From Leptolyngbyaceae cyanobacterium (GTDB taxonomy: Bacteria; Cyanobacteriota; Cyanobacteriia; Phormidesmidales; Phormidesmidaceae): 15,427 bases of DNA. The position numbers and the translations under genes were made by a program. The stretch lies in the NCBI GenBank assembly GCA_965263355.1, contig CBDHHL010000001.1, positions 1-15,427 of the forward strand, given 5' to 3'. The stretch's first letter is position 1. Every line of letters begins with the position of its first letter. A model generated the notes under the pieces. The model had not been told where the DNA came from. It ran no database searches and saw nothing but the letters and a program-made list of their open reading frames with translations. Positions 7,559 through 15,427 of the stretch are shown piece by piece.

Positions 7559-8514
7559 CTCACAAATGTATGTTTGTTATGCTAACTTAGTCAAGAGTGT
7601 TTTTTTATTCTGAACTTGGCTGTTGTTGTGCTAACCCTCTATAGAGTTTTAGACTGTGTGCACTGGTATTCTACTATGCTGCTGTAATTCGTGTTATTGT
7701 GTTTTGTGGCCAAGATAGATCTCTCTCTGGGTCTCCCTTCTTGCTCTCAGCAAGTGCTCCATCATGCCCTGACAGCAAGCGCTCTTTGGCCGCCAGATTG
7801 CCGCCATCTCATCTTTTGTTAGGAAGCTTGCAACTTAGACAAAAATTTAAAAAATATAAAAATATTATTTTAGGATTGGTAAAAATAAGTTGAATTTATT
7901 ATGTACATTATATTGAAATGATGAATACTCATAGGAATTCAAAGATTATAACATAACAACCGTATATGGAGACCCGTTTCAAATTTAAACTTGATAAAAT
8001 GATATCAAGTTTTAAAAAGGTAAAAAAAAATCAAGTTGAAGCATTTATATGTATGCTTAAAAGAATGATTGTAATCTTGTAAGCAAAGCAGAATTAAGAT
8101 TATGCGTACTTTCATTTCATTTATGAACATCATTTTGCAAATTTGAATGCAATTCAAAAACTTGCTTATTTCATACAGCTGGTTCCATTCTAAATACTCT
8201 CTCCAGGAATAAATGTAAAAAGAGAAAGAAATGTTGGTATTATTCTTATTTACAGAGAGAGAGAGAACCGGCAAAGTGAGGACGGGAAAATGGATGAGTT
8301 TCACCGAGATGTCGTCTGATGCACCAAACTAAAGTTATTGAACTCACTCGATCAAACGAGGAGAATGCTGAACTGTGTATAAGCGTTTATGTAGTTTTAG
8401 CGTCCATGACTAATTCCGACTTTAAAGTTGGAATATTTCCGACCAGTCCTAGATTGCACTTATTCTGACCCTTTTCTGAAGTTTGATTAATTCCGACCAA
8501 AACATGAAATCTTG

Positions 8515-8601
8515 GCAGTAAAGGTAGACTAGCTCTTATCTGTATCGCGTTCAGAGAGCAACTGATTGCTCGTTTATTACAGAGAAGGCGCACACGCACC
8601 A
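8515..8601 (-). repeat. 3' LTR (starts TG directly after the PPT; lacks the last 10 nt present in the 5' LTR)
   Basis: Minus strand: PPT AGGGGGGAGA, then TGGTGCGTG, then the 78-bp core TGCGCCTTC...TTTACTGC, which is identical to 14496-14573. Confidence 0.9.
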
Positions 8602-8611
8602 TCTCCCCCCT
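8602..8611 (-). other. Polypurine tract (plus-strand primer)
   Basis: AGGGGGGAGA immediately 5' of the TG that opens the 3' LTR. Confidence 0.9.
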
Positions 8612-8792
8612 GTTAATAAGACATGAAAAATACAATTTTGAAACAGGGTTACAAAAAATTGTTACATATTTATATTGTCTTATTGACACAACTTCATTCT
8701 TCATAGACTTGTCTACGTTTACTGAGTAATGCACTAGGAGTGGCAAGTCCAACTCCTGTAAAGAAAAAACACCAAAGAGTTTCACAAGATCT

Positions 8793-11700
8793 TTACTCTT
8801 CTCGATCACTTTCATTGTTTCTGCTAACAAGCTGTCCAATTGAAACATTGCGAAATCCGTTTTTAGTTCTAGTCACTGTGAACCATCCTGCTGGATCAAC
8901 CGCAGGTGGTTTTCTGGCCGCAGGTGGCTTTCTAGCCGCAGGTGGCTTCTGGAAACGAGGTGGAATGGACTCACAGTAAGAGCCTTTCCTTGGGACCCTC
9001 ATCCTCGTTGTCGCTTGGGCCCGCTGGGAAGTACCCAAGGAAGTGGTGCCTTGGGGTAGGCGAGGCCAAGTTCTGGGTGAAAGTGGTCTCCTCGACTGGG
9101 TCCAAGACGACGCTTCCCTCACGTGGGGTGGAGGTGAACTTTGGGCCGGACTTGGGGTAGACTTTGGCACGAAGCTCATGGAGCTCCTTGAGAATCTCCT
9201 GCATTGAGAGGGATTCAGCGGCTGCGGGCGTGACTGGTCGAATCGGGGCTGGCTCAAGTGGGGCACTGAACTGTCCTGGCTGGGGATGTTGAATGTGACC
9301 CTCGCTGGTGACGTCTTCAAAGCGGTCGTTGTCCCACTGTCTGGCGCGCTGATGTCTGAAGAAGTAGGAGTCAATGGGGTTACCAATGGCGACGTGGCCC
9401 GACTCCCTTGCTGCGCGCTGGTGTTGTTTTGCCCTCCAGTATGAGTGGGGGTACCTGTGCTGGGTTTTAACCTTATCGTTGAACAGGTACCTGCGGAACC
9501 ACAGTGCCAGGAAGAAGAAGATCGCTCCGAGGACCAGGTACGCCGAGCCGCCTCGGAAGTCAAAGAGTTCATAGTCTGACTTGTTCTGGGATCGGTCCTG
9601 GAAGCGCTGGTTCCTGGTGGAGTAGTCGTTTGTTGAGTCAATGAAGCCCATGTTGAAGTCTCAGATGCTTGTCTATGTCTGTAAGTAGGAGATACACGTA
9701 AGTGGTCAACACTACGAATTGAGTATTTCCCAGTACTGCTATCACAAATGAGATAAGACTTGGCAGAGTCTCTCACTTCTACTACTGCAGCTTCAGAGTC
9801 CCACAAGAGAGTATGAGGATCTTGTACGAAGACCGACTGTCCAATGTGGAATGGCTCTCTTGGGACCTGTGACCCGTTCTTATACTCAACACCGCGTTGC
9901 CTTTCCTTTGTCCTGGCCTCGAGGCCGGCCTTTTGCGTGCCCTCGGAAATGCAGAGGGCCTGAGGAGCAACAGGTAAAAATTGCTCTTTGTGCCTTCTGC
10001 CAAACATCAGCATATTTGGGCTATATCCATCGGCACGAGGTGTATTAAGCAAGGCAGCGAGTTCCTGGTGATATTGCTGACCAAAGGAACCGACCTTTTT
10101 CAACAAATGTTTCGCCTGTTTGACGGTGGATTCTGCCAATGAATTGCTAGTAGGGTTATAGGCAGAGGAAAGCTCGTGTTTAATGTTGCGTTCCTGGCAA
10201 AAATTGCTGAATTGAGAACGGAATTGTGGGCCCCCATCTGATCTGATTACTAAGGGGAAACCGAAGGTGAGGAACCACTTGCATAATTTGGATATTACGG
10301 CCTTTGTTGTTAAGCTGCGTAATTGGTCGACAAAGAAATAGCCGGAAAATCGACATGCGCACACCAAATATGTGCTTCCTTTTTCTGAAAATAAATCTAC
10401 TCCCACGTGTGACATAGGAGAAAGGGCTGACTCAGAAGACATGTGATGTTTGGGTTTTGACGCCTTGAGTAAATTGCATTCGTTGCAACTTTTTACTTTT
10501 GCTTCAATGTCTCTGATCATGTCTGGCCAAAAATACAGTTCACTGCCTCGTTTTTGCATACGTACTAAACCTGGGTGTCCCTCGTGCAATAAATCAATAA
10601 TTGACGAGCGAGCCGCAATAGGTACCAAAATGCGGAGACCATCGACAACTGCAATTTTTGTCTCACCGGAAAGTAAAATAGACATCCTGTCCCATTGTTT
10701 CTTGAATTCAAATGCGGGGTGACTGTGATCTTCGCAAATGTCGAAGGCAGGGTCTTGCAGAGCGTCAGTGATGAGTTTGTATTTTCGATCTGCTGTGATG
10801 GTGTCAATCAATGTAGAGCAGGGTGTGAAGACCTGGATTTTCCTACAAATATATGTATGGGCATTTTCAATGTCGTCATCACTAGCTTCCGGATTGAAGA
10901 CGGGGTATCTGCTTAGAGCGTCTGCAATAAAGTGAGTTTTGCCTTCACGCCATTCGATACGAAAGTTGAAACCCAAAGTTTTCATTCGTATACGCTGTAG
11001 TCGGGGATTCGTGATATCGCCTAAATCCTTGTCCCATATGCCTAGTAGTGGTTTGTGATCGCTGACGACGACAAACTCGGGCGCCCCCTTGAGGTAAAAC
11101 TGGCATTTCTTGAGTGCATATGCGATTCCCAAGGCCTCCAATTCTATTACGGCATATCGGCTTTGTGTGTCGGTTAAGGAACAGCTGCCGCAATGAATTA
11201 AGCGTAATTTCCCGGTTTGTTCATATTGTATCAATGCAAAACCGAGGCCATACAATTTGCTTGCATCGGTCAGCAGCTCAGTGCGTAGCCCTATATCAAA
11301 CGGCTGAACAAGCAAATCCGAAGTCAATAATTGCTTTGTTTTTATGAATTCCTTTTCCTGAACCTCTGACCAAACAAAGGCATTCTTTTTCTTTAATAGG
11401 CCTTTGATGTGATGCGTATTCTGGGCAAGGTCGGGAAGGAAGGCGCCTAATTGATTACATAGCCCTAAAAATGACTTAATGTCGGTTGTATTTTTAGGGG
11501 TTGGGAAGTCTGTGATTGAAGCGAGTCGCTTTGGATCTGGTTTTATCCCTTTACCAGAAATTTCGTATCCGACGAAGTTGATCTTGGGCCCAATGTCAAA
11601 TTTCTTTTTCGAGATTGTGATCCCAATTTCGCGACATTTGAGTAAAATGCGACGTGCTGACTCGACTGTTTCGGCAAGGGACGGACCTTGTGTCATGACA

Positions 11701-14375
11701 TCATCGACCATTTTTATCGCCTGGGGCTCATGAAATGTAATTGGGTCTGAGCTAATGCCCCAATAATCGCCGGCGCAATTCATGCCCTGAGGGTTGCGAT
11801 TATATCTGAATTTTCCCTGAGGCAAAAGAAACGTCGATTTGTCCCTGTCTTCCTCGGCTAATTCCATTTGATAGTAACCGTGTACTGCATCCATTTTGAT
11901 AAAAAATAAAGAATCGGGTCGTACTCTGTCAGCGACCTCTTGAGCTGATGGAAATGGATGAACAGGCCTTTTGATAAAGCCATTGATGTAGGAGAAGTCT
12001 GTTACTAAGCGCACCCCCCCGTTTGGTTTTTCAACGAAAAATGCAGGACTAATCCAATCAGTGCAGTGGTTGACTGGGCTGATTATTTTTCGGCTAATTA
12101 AATCATCGAGTAATTGTTTTGCTGCTTTTTCCTGGTGTACTGGTACCCGTCTAGCTACCGAGCATTTTCTGGGTTTTAATTTAATATCATCGCGAAATTC
12201 AATTTTCATAGGCCCACCTTTGATTGGGGTTTCGCTGATCTCGTCGCTGATTACATCAGCAAATTCTTCGAAAAGACGCAATTTTGCTTGGAGGCACTGC
12301 TCCTCAATGCTAGTTGAATCGCATGCAGGCTCTGTGATTGACCTTGCAATGTAAGCTCTGTCAAATTTTAAGGCCTGAAAATCGCTGACGTCGCTGTTTG
12401 GCCAGTTGAATGGCAAAACTCCTAGCCTTTTCAAGTCGGGGTATGAAACGATAATTTCGTCGTGTGTGTCAGCGCATACCGTAAATTCCACAATCTTTTT
12501 GCCGGTTTTCTGCTTCAAAGTCAATTCGCAACGTACTATTCCCGTGCAACGCATTCTTTCGCCTGTTACACTAAACATAGGCCTAGGCCTTTTGTGCTGT
12601 ACAAACACAAATCCCCATGAAATTGCAAGGTTTTCGGAAATTACTGATCCAGTTGCACCGGTGTCCAAAATACAAAGCCAATTTACGGTTTTCTTTCCCT
12701 CAATTACGAAAGACCCATACAAAGTCGGCGTCCTCTCGTCGGGCTGGTGATAAATGCGAATTCTGTGAGCGTTACCTGATGCCAAAATCTGTGCATAAGT
12801 CCAATCATCAATGTCAACTTCACCCTCATTTCCGCTTTCGTTCTCGACCTCCTGGGCCCAGTCTGTCTCTTCAAACTCCTGGCCCTCATAGGTGTAGCGA
12901 CGGATTCTTCCTGTCCTGTCGTTTTGCTCATGTCGGGGAGGTTCTTGCTCCTCTTCTTGACGTTCTGTCCTTCTGGTCTTGTTGACCTTCCTCTTGCATA
13001 CAGGGTGCTTTGAGCCGTGACCCTGCTGCCCACAACCGTGACAAGTCCAGTCTTTAAATGGACATTCACGTTTGATGTGGTTGTCGAGACCGCATCCATG
13101 GCATTTAACCATCTTTTGTCTTTCCCGGCCTGGGCTTTTCGACTTTTGCCTTTGGAATTCTCTTCTCTCACGGCCGTCGCGGTCTCCCCCACGGTCCCTG
13201 CCGTGGCTAGTGCGCATTGTGCGCTCTTGTCTGGGTTGTGACCCTCGCATATTTTCAAAATATGCATCGATGAGGGTGTCGATATCCTTCAAGGGCTTTC
13301 CCATAATGGTGAGCAAGTGCTGCTTCAGCGCATTATCGTTTATGCAGGTGTGGTATTTGTACACATAGCATTCTTCCTCAGTTAGCTTGTGTAACTCACA
13401 CATATCCCCCACCTCCTTCAATCTGAGGCGGAAGTCTCGGAAATCCTCGCCCTTGTCTGGCCGCATGCTGAAGAATTCCTTCCTCCTGGCAAACAAGGGA
13501 TATAACCTCTTGAATTCAAGGTCAAGGAAGGCCATGCAGCCTCCGGCGCCATATACTCCAATGTCGCCCCTGACGTTTTTGTTTAACAGTTTCTTCAAAT
13601 GGTCATCGAGGCATTTGTTTAGGTTGGCCCTCTGCTCAGGGACCTCTCTCTTGTCCATTTGGTTGACCTGGAAGTATGTCTCAAAATCCCTTTTCCAGGT
13701 GTCAAACTCGGCGGGAGTGTGGTCAGCTGACAGCTTGTCAGGCCTGATGCTGTCATCCACTTTTGATCTCCCAGCTTCCTTTGGGGCGGTGGCGATGGCT
13801 CCTGCCTCGTTCACGGCCTTCATCTTGACGGCGGCGAGATACCTGTTCACCGCGGTCTCCGTCCTGTTGATGTCTGGCTGCGCCTCCTGGAATATGTTAT
13901 CCTTTTGCGCCTCGACATCCTCTCTGACGATTGGGTATGTGGCACCCAACTCGTCCAGTTGACTTTGTACCTTGTCAACTTTCTCCCCCAGTTTCTTGAG
14001 TATCTCCCTGGCCTTGTCCACATCGAACTGGCTGCCTCCACCGCTCTCCAGGCGGGTGCGCACATCCTTGAGTGCGTCCAGCCAGCGGGTGACATGCCCT
14101 TTGTTGGACCTGATGGAGTATCTCAATCTGTCGAAGTTCTTGTAGCTCGTCGAGCCGTCGTCCTTGACCGACTCGATTTTCGACATGTTTGCTGTGGGGT
14201 TTTTACCGTTCTGTGGCTGTGTAGTGCTAGCAGGCGGGATCACCACTGTATCCTGAAGAAGTGCTCTTTCCTCATCTTCATCCACGCTGTGGACTGAGAC
14301 CATAGACGCATCTTCTTCATCCTCCTCTAACGCACGTAACAACGACTGGTTCCACGGTTCATCTTTCTTAGCCAT
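8793..14375 (-). CDS. gag-pol: Gag-Pol polyprotein (1860 aa, single frame)
   Basis: Helical Gag; two zinc knuckles CHGCGLDNHIKREC...CHGCGQQGHGSKHPVC (12996-13103); aspartic protease ILDTGA (DTG at 12657-12665). RT motifs KPNGGVRLVTDF, MDAVHGYYQ, PQG and MVDD (11700-11711). RNase H motifs TDAS (11259-11270), ELEALGI, SDHKPL and ADALSR. Integrase HEGH...CNEC (10476-10586) with the DDE triad in VDLF / SDGGPQF / AESTVK. Ends in a ~290-aa S/T/P/R-rich tail. Confidence 0.97.
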   Translation of the reverse strand: MAKKDEPWNQSLLRALEEDEEDASMVSVHSVDEDEERALLQDTVVIPPASTTQPQNGKNPTANMSKIESVKDDGSTSYKNFDRLRYSIRSNKGHVTRWLDALKDVRTRLESGGGSQFDVDKAREILKKLGEKVDKVQSQLDELGATYPIVREDVEAQKDNIFQEAQPDINRTETAVNRYLAAVKMKAVNEAGAIATAPKEAGRSKVDDSIRPDKLSADHTPAEFDTWKRDFETYFQVNQMDKREVPEQRANLNKCLDDHLKKLLNKNVRGDIGVYGAGGCMAFLDLEFKRLYPLFARRKEFFSMRPDKGEDFRDFRLRLKEVGDMCELHKLTEEECYVYKYHTCINDNALKQHLLTIMGKPLKDIDTLIDAYFENMRGSQPRQERTMRTSHGRDRGGDRDGRERREFQRQKSKSPGRERQKMVKCHGCGLDNHIKRECPFKDWTCHGCGQQGHGSKHPVCKRKVNKTRRTERQEEEQEPPRHEQNDRTGRIRRYTYEGQEFEETDWAQEVENESGNEGEVDIDDWTYAQILASGNAHRIRIYHQPDERTPTLYGSFVIEGKKTVNWLCILDTGATGSVISENLAISWGFVFVQHKRPRPMFSVTGERMRCTGIVRCELTLKQKTGKKIVEFTVCADTHDEIIVSYPDLKRLGVLPFNWPNSDVSDFQALKFDRAYIARSITEPACDSTSIEEQCLQAKLRLFEEFADVISDEISETPIKGGPMKIEFRDDIKLKPRKCSVARRVPVHQEKAAKQLLDDLISRKIISPVNHCTDWISPAFFVEKPNGGVRLVTDFSYINGFIKRPVHPFPSAQEVADRVRPDSLFFIKMDAVHGYYQMELAEEDRDKSTFLLPQGKFRYNRNPQGMNCAGDYWGISSDPITFHEPQAIKMVDDVMTQGPSLAETVESARRILLKCREIGITISKKKFDIGPKINFVGYEISGKGIKPDPKRLASITDFPTPKNTTDIKSFLGLCNQLGAFLPDLAQNTHHIKGLLKKKNAFVWSEVQEKEFIKTKQLLTSDLLVQPFDIGLRTELLTDASKLYGLGFALIQYEQTGKLRLIHCGSCSLTDTQSRYAVIELEALGIAYALKKCQFYLKGAPEFVVVSDHKPLLGIWDKDLGDITNPRLQRIRMKTLGFNFRIEWREGKTHFIADALSRYPVFNPEASDDDIENAHTYICRKIQVFTPCSTLIDTITADRKYKLITDALQDPAFDICEDHSHPAFEFKKQWDRMSILLSGETKIAVVDGLRILVPIAARSSIIDLLHEGHPGLVRMQKRGSELYFWPDMIRDIEAKVKSCNECNLLKASKPKHHMSSESALSPMSHVGVDLFSEKGSTYLVCACRFSGYFFVDQLRSLTTKAVISKLCKWFLTFGFPLVIRSDGGPQFRSQFSNFCQERNIKHELSSAYNPTSNSLAESTVKQAKHLLKKVGSFGQQYHQELAALLNTPRADGYSPNMLMFGRRHKEQFLPVAPQALCISEGTQKAGLEARTKERQRGVEYKNGSQVPREPFHIGQSVFVQDPHTLLWDSEAAVVEVRDSAKSYLICDSSTGKYSIRSVDHLRVSPTYRHRQASETSTWASLTQQTTTPPGTSASRTDPRTSQTMNSLTSEAARRTWSSERSSSSWHCGSAGTCSTIRLKPSTGTPTHTGGQNNTSAQQGSRATSPLVTPLTPTSSDISAPDSGTTTALKTSPARVTFNIPSQDSSVPHLSQPRFDQSRPQPLNPSQCRRFSRSSMSFVPKSTPSPAQSSPPPHVREASSWTQSRRPLSPRTWPRLPQGTTSLGTSQRAQATTRMRVPRKGSYCESIPPRFQKPPAARKPPAARKPPAVDPAGWFTVTRTKNGFRNVSIGQLVSRNNESDREE
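8900..8952. repeat. Three ~18-bp tandem units encoding KPPAAR-KPPAAR-KPPA at the Pol C-terminus
   Basis: CCGCAGGTGGTTTTCTGG / CCGCAGGTGGCTTTCTAG / CCGCAGGTGGCTTCTGG. Confidence 0.9.
8971..9651 (-). CDS. Nested ORF2: 226-aa single-pass membrane protein with FAST-like architecture, in the env position
   Basis: Start context CAACATGG. 48 of the first 60 codons end in G/C. It has an MGFIDS myristoylation consensus, an NKS sequon at 23-25, a hydrophobic helix AYLVLGAIFFFLALWF (aa 37-52, nt 9496-9543), 9 K/R in aa 53-82, a Pro-rich stretch and an amphipathic helix SMQEILKELHELRAK. The function is inferred. Confidence 0.75.
   Translation of the reverse strand: MGFIDSTNDYSTRNQRFQDRSQNKSDYELFDFRGGSAYLVLGAIFFFLALWFRRYLFNDKVKTQHRYPHSYWRAKQHQRAARESGHVAIGNPIDSYFFRHQRARQWDNDRFEDVTSEGHIQHPQPGQFSAPLEPAPIRPVTPAAAESLSMQEILKELHELRAKVYPKSGPKFTSTPREGSVVLDPVEETTFTQNLASPTPRHHFLGYFPAGPSDNEDEGPKERLLL
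9679..9694 (-). promoter_or_regulatory. Candidate 3' splice acceptor for a subgenomic ORF2 mRNA
   Basis: TATCTCCTACTTACAG| (pyrimidine tract plus CAG), with branch-like TTGAC/CTTAC upstream. It ends 27 nt before the ORF2 ATG and there is no intervening ATG. Confidence 0.5.
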
Positions 14376-14400
14376 AGTAGGCGCCTAATGGGGCCTCCAT
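14368..14400 (-). other. uORF (MEAPLGAYYG*) overlapping the first gag ATG out of frame
   Basis: CCACC ATG GAG GCC CCA TTA GGC GCC TAC TAT GGC TAA. The Kozak context is optimal and the stop falls just past the ATG at 14375. Confidence 0.5.
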
Positions 14401-14474
14401 GGTGGAACTTTAAAAGTTTTCACACTTCACTAATGCTCAAAAATTTTCACAAGTTTTGCGTATTAGTTCACTTT

Positions 14475-14485
14475 CGACTGCGCCA
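14475..14485 (-). other. Primer binding site, tRNA-Ser type
   Basis: TGGCGCAGTCG is complementary to the ...CGACTGCG-CCA 3' end of arthropod tRNA-Ser. As I recall, Drosophila 17.6/297 use the same PBS type. Confidence 0.85.
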
Positions 14486-14573
14486 TCGTACATACGCAGT
14501 AAAGGTAGACTAGCTCTTATCTGTATCGCGTTCAGAGAGCAACTGATTGCTCGTTTATTACAGAGAAGGCGCA
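14486..14573 (-). repeat. 5' LTR (lacks the first 9 nt present in the 3' LTR)
   Basis: 78-bp core identical to 8515-8592, followed by GTATGTACGA and then the PBS. Confidence 0.9.
14512..14559 (-). promoter_or_regulatory. LTR core signals: AATAAA followed by an Inr (TCAGTT) in a small hairpin
   Basis: Minus strand AATAAAC-GAGCAA-TCAG-TTGCTC. The Inr A(+1) is at 14544, with G at +24 and AGAGC at +28 to +32 (an imperfect DPE match). Confidence 0.5.
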
Positions 14574-15427
14574 GCCAGTTTTGTGTGATAGAAAAATGTG
14601 TCTCTTTTTACTGCACCGCCGGATATTTGTAAAGGGAAAACAAGTGTCCCTAAAATGTTATCTTCATTAAATTTAATTGAAAGAGTCTTGTCTTTTATGG
14701 CTCTTAGTATTCAAAACAAGACACGCACTTGTTCTCTTAAACTGCATTCAAATTAGGTTACTTTCTTGAAGTTGCAACTATTTTTTATTTGCTTGGATTA
14801 CGCAGAAAATAATTCAATTTGTTTGTTTACTTAAAGGAAAAATATTTCCAGAAATGTTCTAGATAGTAGTGTGTTTGTTTGGGACCGTCCTCTCAGATAA
14901 AAAGATTGACAAGTCATTTCATGAATTTGTCACTTTTTGACAAGGGAGGGATTTAAACAGTACTAACACGAAAGTGAAATTTGTTTGCATTGGGGGTGAT
15001 TAACACTTCACTTCGTGAAAATCTAATTTGACTTTTTATTTGAATTTCAAGAATGGTCCAGTCAAAAATAGTAATTAACTTCCAAATTTGCAACCCTTCT
15101 GTACCCCTTGTCAGAATGAAAATTGACATGATAACTGGTTCAAACTCTATGCGTAGAGAAATGTTTATTACTTTTCTATCATAAATGTGATTATATGATT
15201 TCATTTGTTAGGCATCAAAATGAAGTTAGCCTTCTCATTTCCTTTACTGCTGGTGATTTTCAATTGTTAATACTGGAGCAGCCAGTTATTACAATGTTGA
15301 TGACTTGGAAGAGATGAGTCATCGCATCAGCTGATCGTCAGGTGCTCTGCTGAGCTAGTTGAAGAAAAAAGAGGTCAGTGTTGTCTGCAGGTATAAATGT
15401 TTGGCCTCTAATTCAACCACTTGTAGG

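Follow-up and report, generated by a model that had tools for sequence, protein, structure and literature searches.

FAST-like proteins in retrotransposons with long terminal repeats (LTRs) were recognised only in 2025 and only in insects. As described by Voichek et al. 2025 (PMC11952523), Drosophila elements of the MDG1 group (412, mdg1, Stalker, Blood and Tabor) carry FAST-like proteins named sORF2, which are linked to the transfer of capsids from follicle cells to the oocyte, and of 22 Lepidoptera consensus sequences 7 have sORF2-like genes placed downstream of pol. Sizes given in the same source are 63–107 amino acid residues (aa) for sORF2 and 80–200 aa for FAST proteins, and a later survey (PMC13486581) has sORF2 stably kept in mdg1-group elements of drosophilids. 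Since there is no usable sequence similarity among retrotransposon FAST-like proteins, they were found by layout filters. Here we describe a 226-codon open reading frame (ORF), called ORF2, which is nested in the tail of pol in an intact Ty3/Gypsy LTR retrotransposon lacking an env gene. The element occupies positions 8515–14573 on the minus strand of a 15,427-nucleotide (nt) stretch of DNA deposited as Leptolyngbyaceae cyanobacterium (contig CBDHHL010000001.1 of assembly GCA_965263355.1), referred to below as the window.

We propose that a Mag-like Ty3/Gypsy element has in ORF2 a genuine accessory gene. Weighted to those of its parts that are directly observed, this explanation has in our estimate a probability of about 0.6. 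The initial annotation of the locus had seen in ORF2 a FAST-like membrane protein overprinted on the end of pol, and its reference to sORF2 of Drosophila proved right by Voichek et al. (PMC11952523), who also have cases downstream of pol. Small FAST-like membrane proteins are known already from LTR retrotransposons that lack env, some of them downstream of pol. What is new is a long form overprinted over its whole length on an extension of pol, a Mag-like lineage lying outside the insect sets searched so far and a conserved, sequence-searchable family in the same slot of about half of the related metagenome elements. No description of such proteins in Mag-type elements was met in the literature searched, which took in few subscription journals and no PDF supplements of Voichek et al. 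Ordinary gene callers do not see ORF2, because it lies inside the pol frame.

Coding evidence for ORF2 in the tail of pol

The features on which the argument depends are the following.

8793..14375, minus strand: gag-pol frame, single, 1860 codons, without frameshift
9687..9716, minus strand: last conserved integrase C-terminal residues RSVDHLRVSP (pol 1554–1563), where the alignment with relatives stops
8796..9653, minus strand: pol-frame tail, codons 1575–1860, S/T/P/R-rich and stop-free, unconstrained in sequence where it lies over ORF2
8971..9651, minus strand: ORF2, probable accessory membrane-protein gene, 226 codons and a stop, in the −1 frame of pol

ORF2 is read from 9651 to 8971, with the start, length and frame that had been assigned to it, and lies wholly within the gag-pol frame inside its 286-codon tail, so that the first codon position of ORF2 is the third one of pol. 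It begins in the context CAACATGG with an in-frame TGA four codons upstream and is the longest alternative-frame ORF of the element. The slot that it occupies is the env position of retroviruses. The conserved C-terminal domain of integrase ends at about residue 1563, 12 codons short of the ORF2 start, and a pol-synonymous variant at 9705 indicates that purifying selection in the pol frame is still visible in the segment 9687..9716.

At approximately pol codon 1560 the GC-rich codon position moves from the third position of pol to its second, which is the third position of ORF2, with values of 0.70–0.77. GC content at third codon positions (GC3) is 0.80 over codons 1–60 of ORF2 and 0.71 over the whole of it, compared with 0.68 in gag and 0.45 in the enzymatic part of pol, which bears out the contrast with A/T-ending upstream pol codons noticed from the start. 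In the pol frame the tail has a GC3 of 0.53, while the GC-rich position is the second one, and its translation is an S/T/P/R-rich sequence of low complexity, as expected for a shadow frame.

Variation between copies was estimated by aligning contigs of three sequencing runs of one study (X1–X3) to the element. Out of 482 variant places 40 are listed, 35 of them coding, and the counts that follow refer to those listed. In gag-pol upstream of ORF2, 26 of 27 variants are synonymous in pol. Inside ORF2 the pattern is reversed: six of eight are synonymous in ORF2 and non-synonymous in pol (P = 0.0023 against a neutral expectation of 0.224), while the remaining two are pol-synonymous and change A>T and I>V in ORF2. 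The drop in the pol-synonymous share from the upstream part to ORF2 is significant by Fisher's test (P = 0.0001). No insertions or deletions were found among these variants between 8637 and 9985.

Thus, according to three independent lines, namely codon-position composition, copy variation and the shadow-like translation of pol, the ORF2 frame is the coding frame in this stretch. Both frames are open, and coding composition and purifying selection track that of ORF2, which, within a small sample, is the behavior of an overprinted pair with selection acting in the new frame. Composition and copy variants therefore support the idea that a real gene is overprinted on the tail of pol in a Gypsy element without env, and we consider it very probable that ORF2 is a translated gene.

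The ORF2 protein and its likeness to FAST-like proteins

Along the predicted protein five segments can be distinguished.

9553..9651, minus strand: N-terminal, predicted external segment, residues 1–33, with MGFIDS, an NKS sequon at residue 23 and YELFDF at 27–32
9496..9552, minus strand: predicted single transmembrane (TM) helix, residues 34–52, Kyte-Doolittle windows up to 1.91
9400..9495, minus strand: RRY followed by a polybasic juxtamembrane stretch, residues 53–84, 9 K/R and 3 H, net charge +7
9214..9297, minus strand: Pro-rich stretch, residues 119–146, 7 Pro of 28
9160..9204, minus strand: predicted short amphipathic helix, residues 150–164, an AlphaFold2 helix with block predicted local distance difference test score (pLDDT) of 89

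All of the elements of the layout recorded at the outset (NKS sequon, YELFDF, one TM helix, polybasic and Pro-rich stretches, amphipathic helix) are thus present in ORF2. AlphaFold2 places the TM helix at residues 35–63 with block pLDDT of 96 and 86 and values above 90 in the core; for ORF2 alone the mean pLDDT is 58.8 and little is modelled beyond this helix. The highest 11-residue hydrophobic moment of the whole protein (0.65) falls at residues 150–160, and windows of 15 and 18 residues give weaker values (0.44 and 0.30). Net charge is −1 before the TM helix and +7 in the 32 residues after it, so that an N-out/C-in orientation is predicted by the positive-inside rule. That ORF2 is a membrane protein of this topology appears probable. 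Y55 is situated three residues past F52, directly downstream of the TM helix, and 33–36 residues precede the helix. The signal for N-myristoylation is ambiguous: MGxxxS, on which the initial annotation relied, is present, but Phe after Gly fails a stricter PROSITE-type pattern, G-{EDRKHPFYW}-x(2)-[STAGCN]-{P}.

Like insect sORF2, ORF2 is a small sense-strand gene of an env-less Ty3/Gypsy element encoding MGxxxS, an external segment of about 30 aa and one TM helix, the helix being followed closely by a Tyr and then by a polybasic stretch, with an amphipathic motif further along the tail, and some of the Lepidoptera genes also lie downstream of pol. The operational marks of sORF2 set out in PMC11952523 are a sense-strand ORF in a Metaviridae element, a predicted TM helix, MGxxxS/T, a Tyr just past the helix and an external segment of about 30 aa; all of them were found here, the last two as Y55 and 33–36 aa. 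The two differ in length (63–107 aa in sORF2, 226 aa in ORF2), in position (upstream of gag in sORF2, nested in the pol tail here) and in the host element (MDG1 versus Mag-like). They share no sequence similarity, as none is expected for the class, ORF2 has Phe after Gly2, and it is known from sequence alone.

With the reovirus FAST proteins (p14, p15, p13 and p10) ORF2 shares a bitopic N-out/C-in arrangement, which in ORF2 is predicted, and a tiny external segment of about 20–40 aa with a hydrophobic patch, here 33–36 residues with YELFDF. Further points of likeness are the cluster of basic residues next to the membrane and, in the cytoplasmic tail, Pro-rich sequence together with an amphipathic helix (listed in part in PMC11952523). 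The succession of a short N-terminal segment, TM helix, polybasic and Pro-rich stretches and amphipathic helix thus fits the sORF2/FAST-like class, as had been suggested. In contrast to ORF2, the FAST proteins belong to double-stranded RNA viruses and are slightly shorter; acylation of ORF2 is ambiguous, and there is no match between them in sequence or fold.

A third comparison is offered by the ORF3 proteins of bdelloid rotifers, which according to Rodriguez et al. 2017 (PMC5408684) have 210–230 aa, are encoded after pol, contain TM segments and were proposed as stand-ins for env; ORF3s of LTR retrotransposons are, by the same source, typically expressed from spliced messages. Unlike ORF2, they belong to the Vesta and Juno lineages, show weak gp41-like similarity and are separate rather than overprinted (PMC5408684).

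Based on this layout, ORF2 would be a 226-aa single-pass membrane protein with an N-terminal segment of about 35 aa outside, a basic juxtamembrane stretch and a cytoplasmic tail of about 170 aa. The gag-pol frame would run through the whole of it and give integrase a low-complexity tail that is free to drift yet open. Expression may proceed from a spliced subgenomic mRNA with a donor after the 5' LTR and an acceptor 27 nt ahead of the ORF2 ATG, for which two candidate sites (cut marked by a stroke) can be indicated.

14490..14500, minus strand: candidate 5' splice site ACTGC/GTATGT, directly after the 5' LTR
9675..9692, minus strand: candidate 3' splice site TCTCCTACTTACAG/ACAT, a pyrimidine-rich CAG at 27 nt from the start codon of ORF2, the interval being ATG-free

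Local membrane fusion or protrusion, by which sORF2 is proposed to act, might then allow the protein to pass capsids of the element from cell to cell. A role in cell-to-cell transmission or fusion is the most likely single function that the layout suggests. We regard it as tentative and less likely than not, because ORF2 has twice the length of the longest sORF2 reported, N-myristoylation is doubtful and the assignment is drawn from layout. If proteins of this kind do move capsids between cells, envelope-free infection from soma to germline would be a general strategy of animal retrotransposons.

Somewhat short of even odds is the explanation that ORF2 is a real membrane protein and no fusogen, its long tail being the working part. 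It may be an adaptor for budding or trafficking of capsids, a viroporin/Vpu-like factor or an antagonist of host restriction. Such functions agree with the prediction that about 170 of the 226 residues are cytoplasmic and include three further helices besides the Pro-rich stretch, which exceeds any described sORF2, with the ambiguous myristoylation signal and with the similarity of one protein of the related family considered below to WW-domain-binding WBP-1. They are less easily reconciled with the short N-terminal segment, the hydrophobic patch flush with the TM helix, RRY and the polybasic stretch, all of which are hallmarks of sORF2 and FAST, and no late-domain motif of the PPxY, P(T/S)AP or YPxL type occurs in ORF2.

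The open pol frame and the related loci

Since the pol frame contains no stop, ribosomes translating gag-pol must read 286 more codons past integrase, and the overlap is thus physically dual-coding. It offers a clean natural example of this kind, in which one frame is held to its sequence while in the other it may be just the absence of stops that is constrained. Two features of the pol frame lie beyond the ORF2 stop.

8901..8945, minus strand: PPAARK three times in tandem 18-nt units of the pol frame, just past the ORF2 stop
8850..8888, minus strand: pol-frame end motif GWFTVTRTKNGFR, residues 1830–1842, downstream of the ORF2 stop

When gag codon usage was applied to an unchanged ORF2 protein, the pol frame remained stop-free over ORF2 in 0.08% of trials (P = 0.0008), and with uniform synonymous usage in 0.02%. 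Codon choice in ORF2 is biased accordingly: among 9 Val codons 8 are GTC, among 7 Ile codons 6 are ATT, and xTA and xTG codons, which would give stops in the pol frame, are avoided. Among the relatives found the nearest two are P0003, with 45% pol identity and a tail of 368 aa, and P0004, with 39% and 296 aa. Their pol-frame tails are collinear with that of the element, as the real score was reached by 0 of 500 and 1 of 500 shuffles, respectively. The C-terminus of P0004, EGWYTMVKGKNGWK, corresponds to AGWFTVTRTKNGFR of the element with a local score of 75 that none of 2000 shuffles reached; the two tails of roughly 290 aa that separate integrase from this motif are barely alignable.

Other data speak against selection for an open pol frame. 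When the synonymous codons of ORF2 itself were permuted, the pol frame stayed stop-free in 19.6% of permutations, so that its openness may be an accident, which also tells against the dual-coding part of our explanation. The end motif has no counterpart in P0003, whose score was matched or exceeded in 1788 of 2000 shuffles, and the long tails of more distant relatives resemble accidental read-through past their usual RRSxRL end motif. Selection keeping the pol frame open has, on balance, about even odds. The GW(F/Y)T end motif was not found in 80 related metagenome loci. A hidden frame in the pol tails of the two relatives was not revealed by shifted-frame degenerate alignment (z = 1.9 for P0003 and 0.4 for P0004, compared with 97 in the positive control), and the degenerate motif test used for the same purpose is powerless, with a null mean of 8.7 of 10.

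These 80 loci, with pol identities of 28–48%, were obtained by scanning metagenome contigs with the pol alignment, and 51 of them, containing the integrase end and at least 600 nt downstream, were eligible for analysis of the slot after pol. A strict filter (ORF of at least 60 aa starting from ATG, with exactly one TM helix beginning at residue 20–80) selected 15 of the 51 on the pol strand, nine of which begin with MGxxx[STAGCN]. The controls gave three on the reverse strand, none with MG, and 2 of 29 for a stretch inside pol.

The proteins so found define a family, designated here MG-SSGFH-TM, with the pattern MG(G)xxS, about 20 variable residues, (N/S)SSGFH(L/V)(I/F)E(I/L)HxP(S/T)xG flush with the TM helix and RR(Y/C), often followed by Cys clusters and a Pro-rich tail. 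Its hidden Markov model (HMM) matches 31 of the 80 loci and 27 of the 51 eligible ones, always on the pol strand (for example, L039:6117-6440, L001:2972-3364, L024:3591-4097 and L071:1502-1921). The family has no Pfam model, although one member matches Pfam WBP-1, a WW-domain-binding membrane protein (E = 3.2e-5), and six variants of its motif had no match in supplementary file 1 of Voichek et al., which tabulates sORF2/FAST-like sequences. AlphaFold2 on the family alignment (mean pLDDT 68.6) models little beyond the TM helix, and a family member used as a query in the Atlas matched nothing but small membrane proteins of a generic kind. The family is conserved and apparently undescribed.

Ratios of non-synonymous to synonymous substitution (dN/dS) in the TM-ORF frame are 0.17, 0.21, 0.09 and 0.28 in four of the six informative pairs of loci, near-identical pairs being uninformative, while the other two frames give 0.95–2.2, which points to purifying selection on the family. 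The nested pair L016/L026 is one of these four, and its overlapped pol-tail frame has a dN/dS of 2.2. How the gene stands to the pol stop could be judged in 28 loci: it is separate in 21 (gap of 3–912 nt), partly overlaps pol in 2 and is nested in a long pol tail in 5. All five nested relatives use the +1 frame and ORF2 uses the −1 frame, so overprinting of this slot arose more than once.

Other single-TM ORFs of 160–280 aa, unmatched by the family HMM, stand in the slot after pol of L008/L009, L023/L025/L047, L058/L062/L063, L036, L043 and L077. This slot thus seems to be served by small membrane proteins of more than one kind.

ORF2 resembles the family in its place after or over the end of pol on the same strand, in the MG start, in the distance to the TM helix (33–45 aa precede it in the family), in RRY after the helix, as in L001, L002 and L004 (RRY or RK-C-Y in the family at large), and in the Pro-rich tail. 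It differs in the frame of nesting and in that the profile match is insignificant. In the hhalign register NKSDYELFDFRGGSAY of ORF2 falls on NSSGFHLIEIHAPSMG of the family at equal distance from the start. ORF2 is either a very diverged homologue of the family or an analogue in the same slot. The suggestion that the element acquired its protein independently looks unlikely: 27 of 51 related loci have a small MG-TM gene at the same place and strand, and this, together with the collinear tails of P0003 and P0004, makes a gene in this position look old in the lineage.

Several results weigh against our explanation. The selection test comprises eight listed variants, seven of which lie on one diverged copy lineage, and 442 further variants are outside the list. 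Two of the six informative pairs of related loci have a weaker dN/dS in the TM-ORF frame (0.56 for L052/L021 and 0.55 for L002/L013). With its 226 aa ORF2 is outside the ranges of both sORF2 and FAST proteins; its F3 breaks the stricter myristoylation pattern in spite of MGxxxS, and the protein has no Cys and hence none for palmitoylation. No sequence relative of ORF2 was found in protein homologue searches including 1.84 billion representative proteins, Pfam and the ESM Atlas, and the tblastn comparison with the 80 related loci also gave none (best E = 2.3). Tried as a member of the MG-SSGFH-TM family, ORF2 was rejected: the family HMM scores 0.4 (E = 6.5 within the window), 648 of 4000 shuffles of ORF2 residues 3–36 score as well, and hhalign gives a probability of 7.7% (P = 0.0045) over 16 columns at ORF2 residues 23–38. 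The rule that defines the candidate acceptor holds at 5% of random positions in related loci and before the ATGs of 3 of 20 relatives, which is too little to support the splice model. None of the 7 joints listed for the aligned contigs corresponds to the predicted splice from ~14495 to ~9679, a result that in contigs speaks neither for nor against splicing.

The PDB sequence search with ORF2 gave an irrelevant best E of 0.17, viral contigs and genome contigs contained no ORF2 relatives, the scan of viral contigs with the pol alignment gave no relative, and Foldseek of the ORF2 model against viral models returned 0 matches at E ≤ 0.001.

Another conceivable origin of the observed pattern is that ORF2 is a relic, a once separate downstream gene engulfed by read-through of pol and no longer translated, with an ancestral signal of selection. 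The small TM gene is indeed separate from pol in most of the judged relatives, from which it follows that the nested state is derived. This explanation seems improbable, however, as the family of elements is young and active, the ORF2 ATG is intact in a good context and followed by 226 open codons, and the excess of silent changes is seen between present copies. Very improbable is a further explanation, by which the ORF2 frame is open merely by chance, within a pol tail that is GC-rich, of low complexity and the sole product. Stops are rare in GC-rich sequence, and the pol frame, which has an end motif in common with P0004, is open and must be translated with pol; yet the codon-position composition and silent-site excess track ORF2 and not pol, 13 stops interrupt the third frame in this stretch, the S/T/P/R-rich pol tail is shadow-like and relatives hold a selected gene at the same place.

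Returning to ORF2 as a genuine accessory gene, one may combine its features with those of the relatives in a broader picture. FAST-like env-independent transmission could be old and widespread in Mag-like elements of marine and other animals and depend on a fast-evolving myristoylated protein in the env slot, of which MG-SSGFH-TM would be the searchable branch; in the present element the overlap would be truly dual-coding with a functional pol extension, its linker kept open to deliver the conserved C-terminal peptide. As a whole this picture is speculative and rather unlikely, but, if true, it would mean that env-independent FAST-like transmission is not an insect speciality.

Structure of the element and the rest of the window

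Apart from ORF2, the following features of the element were registered.

14496..14573, minus strand: 5' LTR, 78 bp, with AATAAA at 14554–14559, ATG-free, defined from a direct-repeat match
12996..13106, minus strand: two adjacent Zn knuckles in the nucleocapsid part of gag, residues 424–460, read from the translation
8599..8611, minus strand: polypurine tract AGGGGGGAGATGG, directly ahead of the 3' LTR
8515..8592, minus strand: 3' LTR, 78 bp, 100% identical to the 5' LTR, with AATAAA, ATG-free

Pfam domains in gag-pol are RVT_1 (residues 820–939), RNase H (1002–1132), integrase Zn (1251–1305) and rve (1334–1408). By Rodriguez et al. 2017 (PMC5408684) the Mag lineage is characterised by the lack of a gag-pol frameshift, two adjacent Zn knuckles and no GPY/F after integrase. 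The element has all three features, namely the single frame, the double knuckle at 424–460 and the absence of GPY or GPF from pol residues 1400–1575, so that "Mag-like" is a reasonable label, based on features rather than on a tree. With pol residues 1380–1860 as a query, the only named relatives were "K02A2.6-like" proteins of a barnacle (33–34% identity).

In run X1, 525 contigs align to the element, of which 167 have a likeness of 99% or more. The family of elements is thus multicopy in its host, and both this and the identity of the LTRs indicate that it is young and active. One contig of run X3 joins position 9460 to 9963 and represents a copy variant with a 502-bp deletion (9461–9962), which removes the start of ORF2 as well as the C-terminus of integrase; the segment skipped does not have GT-AG at its ends.

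The LTR termini are TG...GC and not TG...CA, and the flanks at 8510–8514 and 14574–14578 (CAAGA and CTGGC, minus strand) show no obvious target-site duplication. Ahead of gag there is an upstream ORF of 10 codons (14370–14402, minus strand) with a strong start context CCACCATGG, whose TAA overlaps the gag start codon; it may be a regulator of gag-pol translation. Within the GC-rich nucleocapsid part of gag, an alternative-frame ORF of 187 aa in the +1 frame (12704–13267, minus strand) has no Pfam match.

Scans of the window for Rfam families and tRNA were empty, and the ORFs flanking the element belong to no Pfam family. One of these outer frames, at 2–802 of the minus strand, is an open-ended 267-aa ORF rich in Q/H/G/S and poly-Ala, with 63% GC and no Pfam family, which looks like a low-complexity part of a host gene of transcription-factor type.

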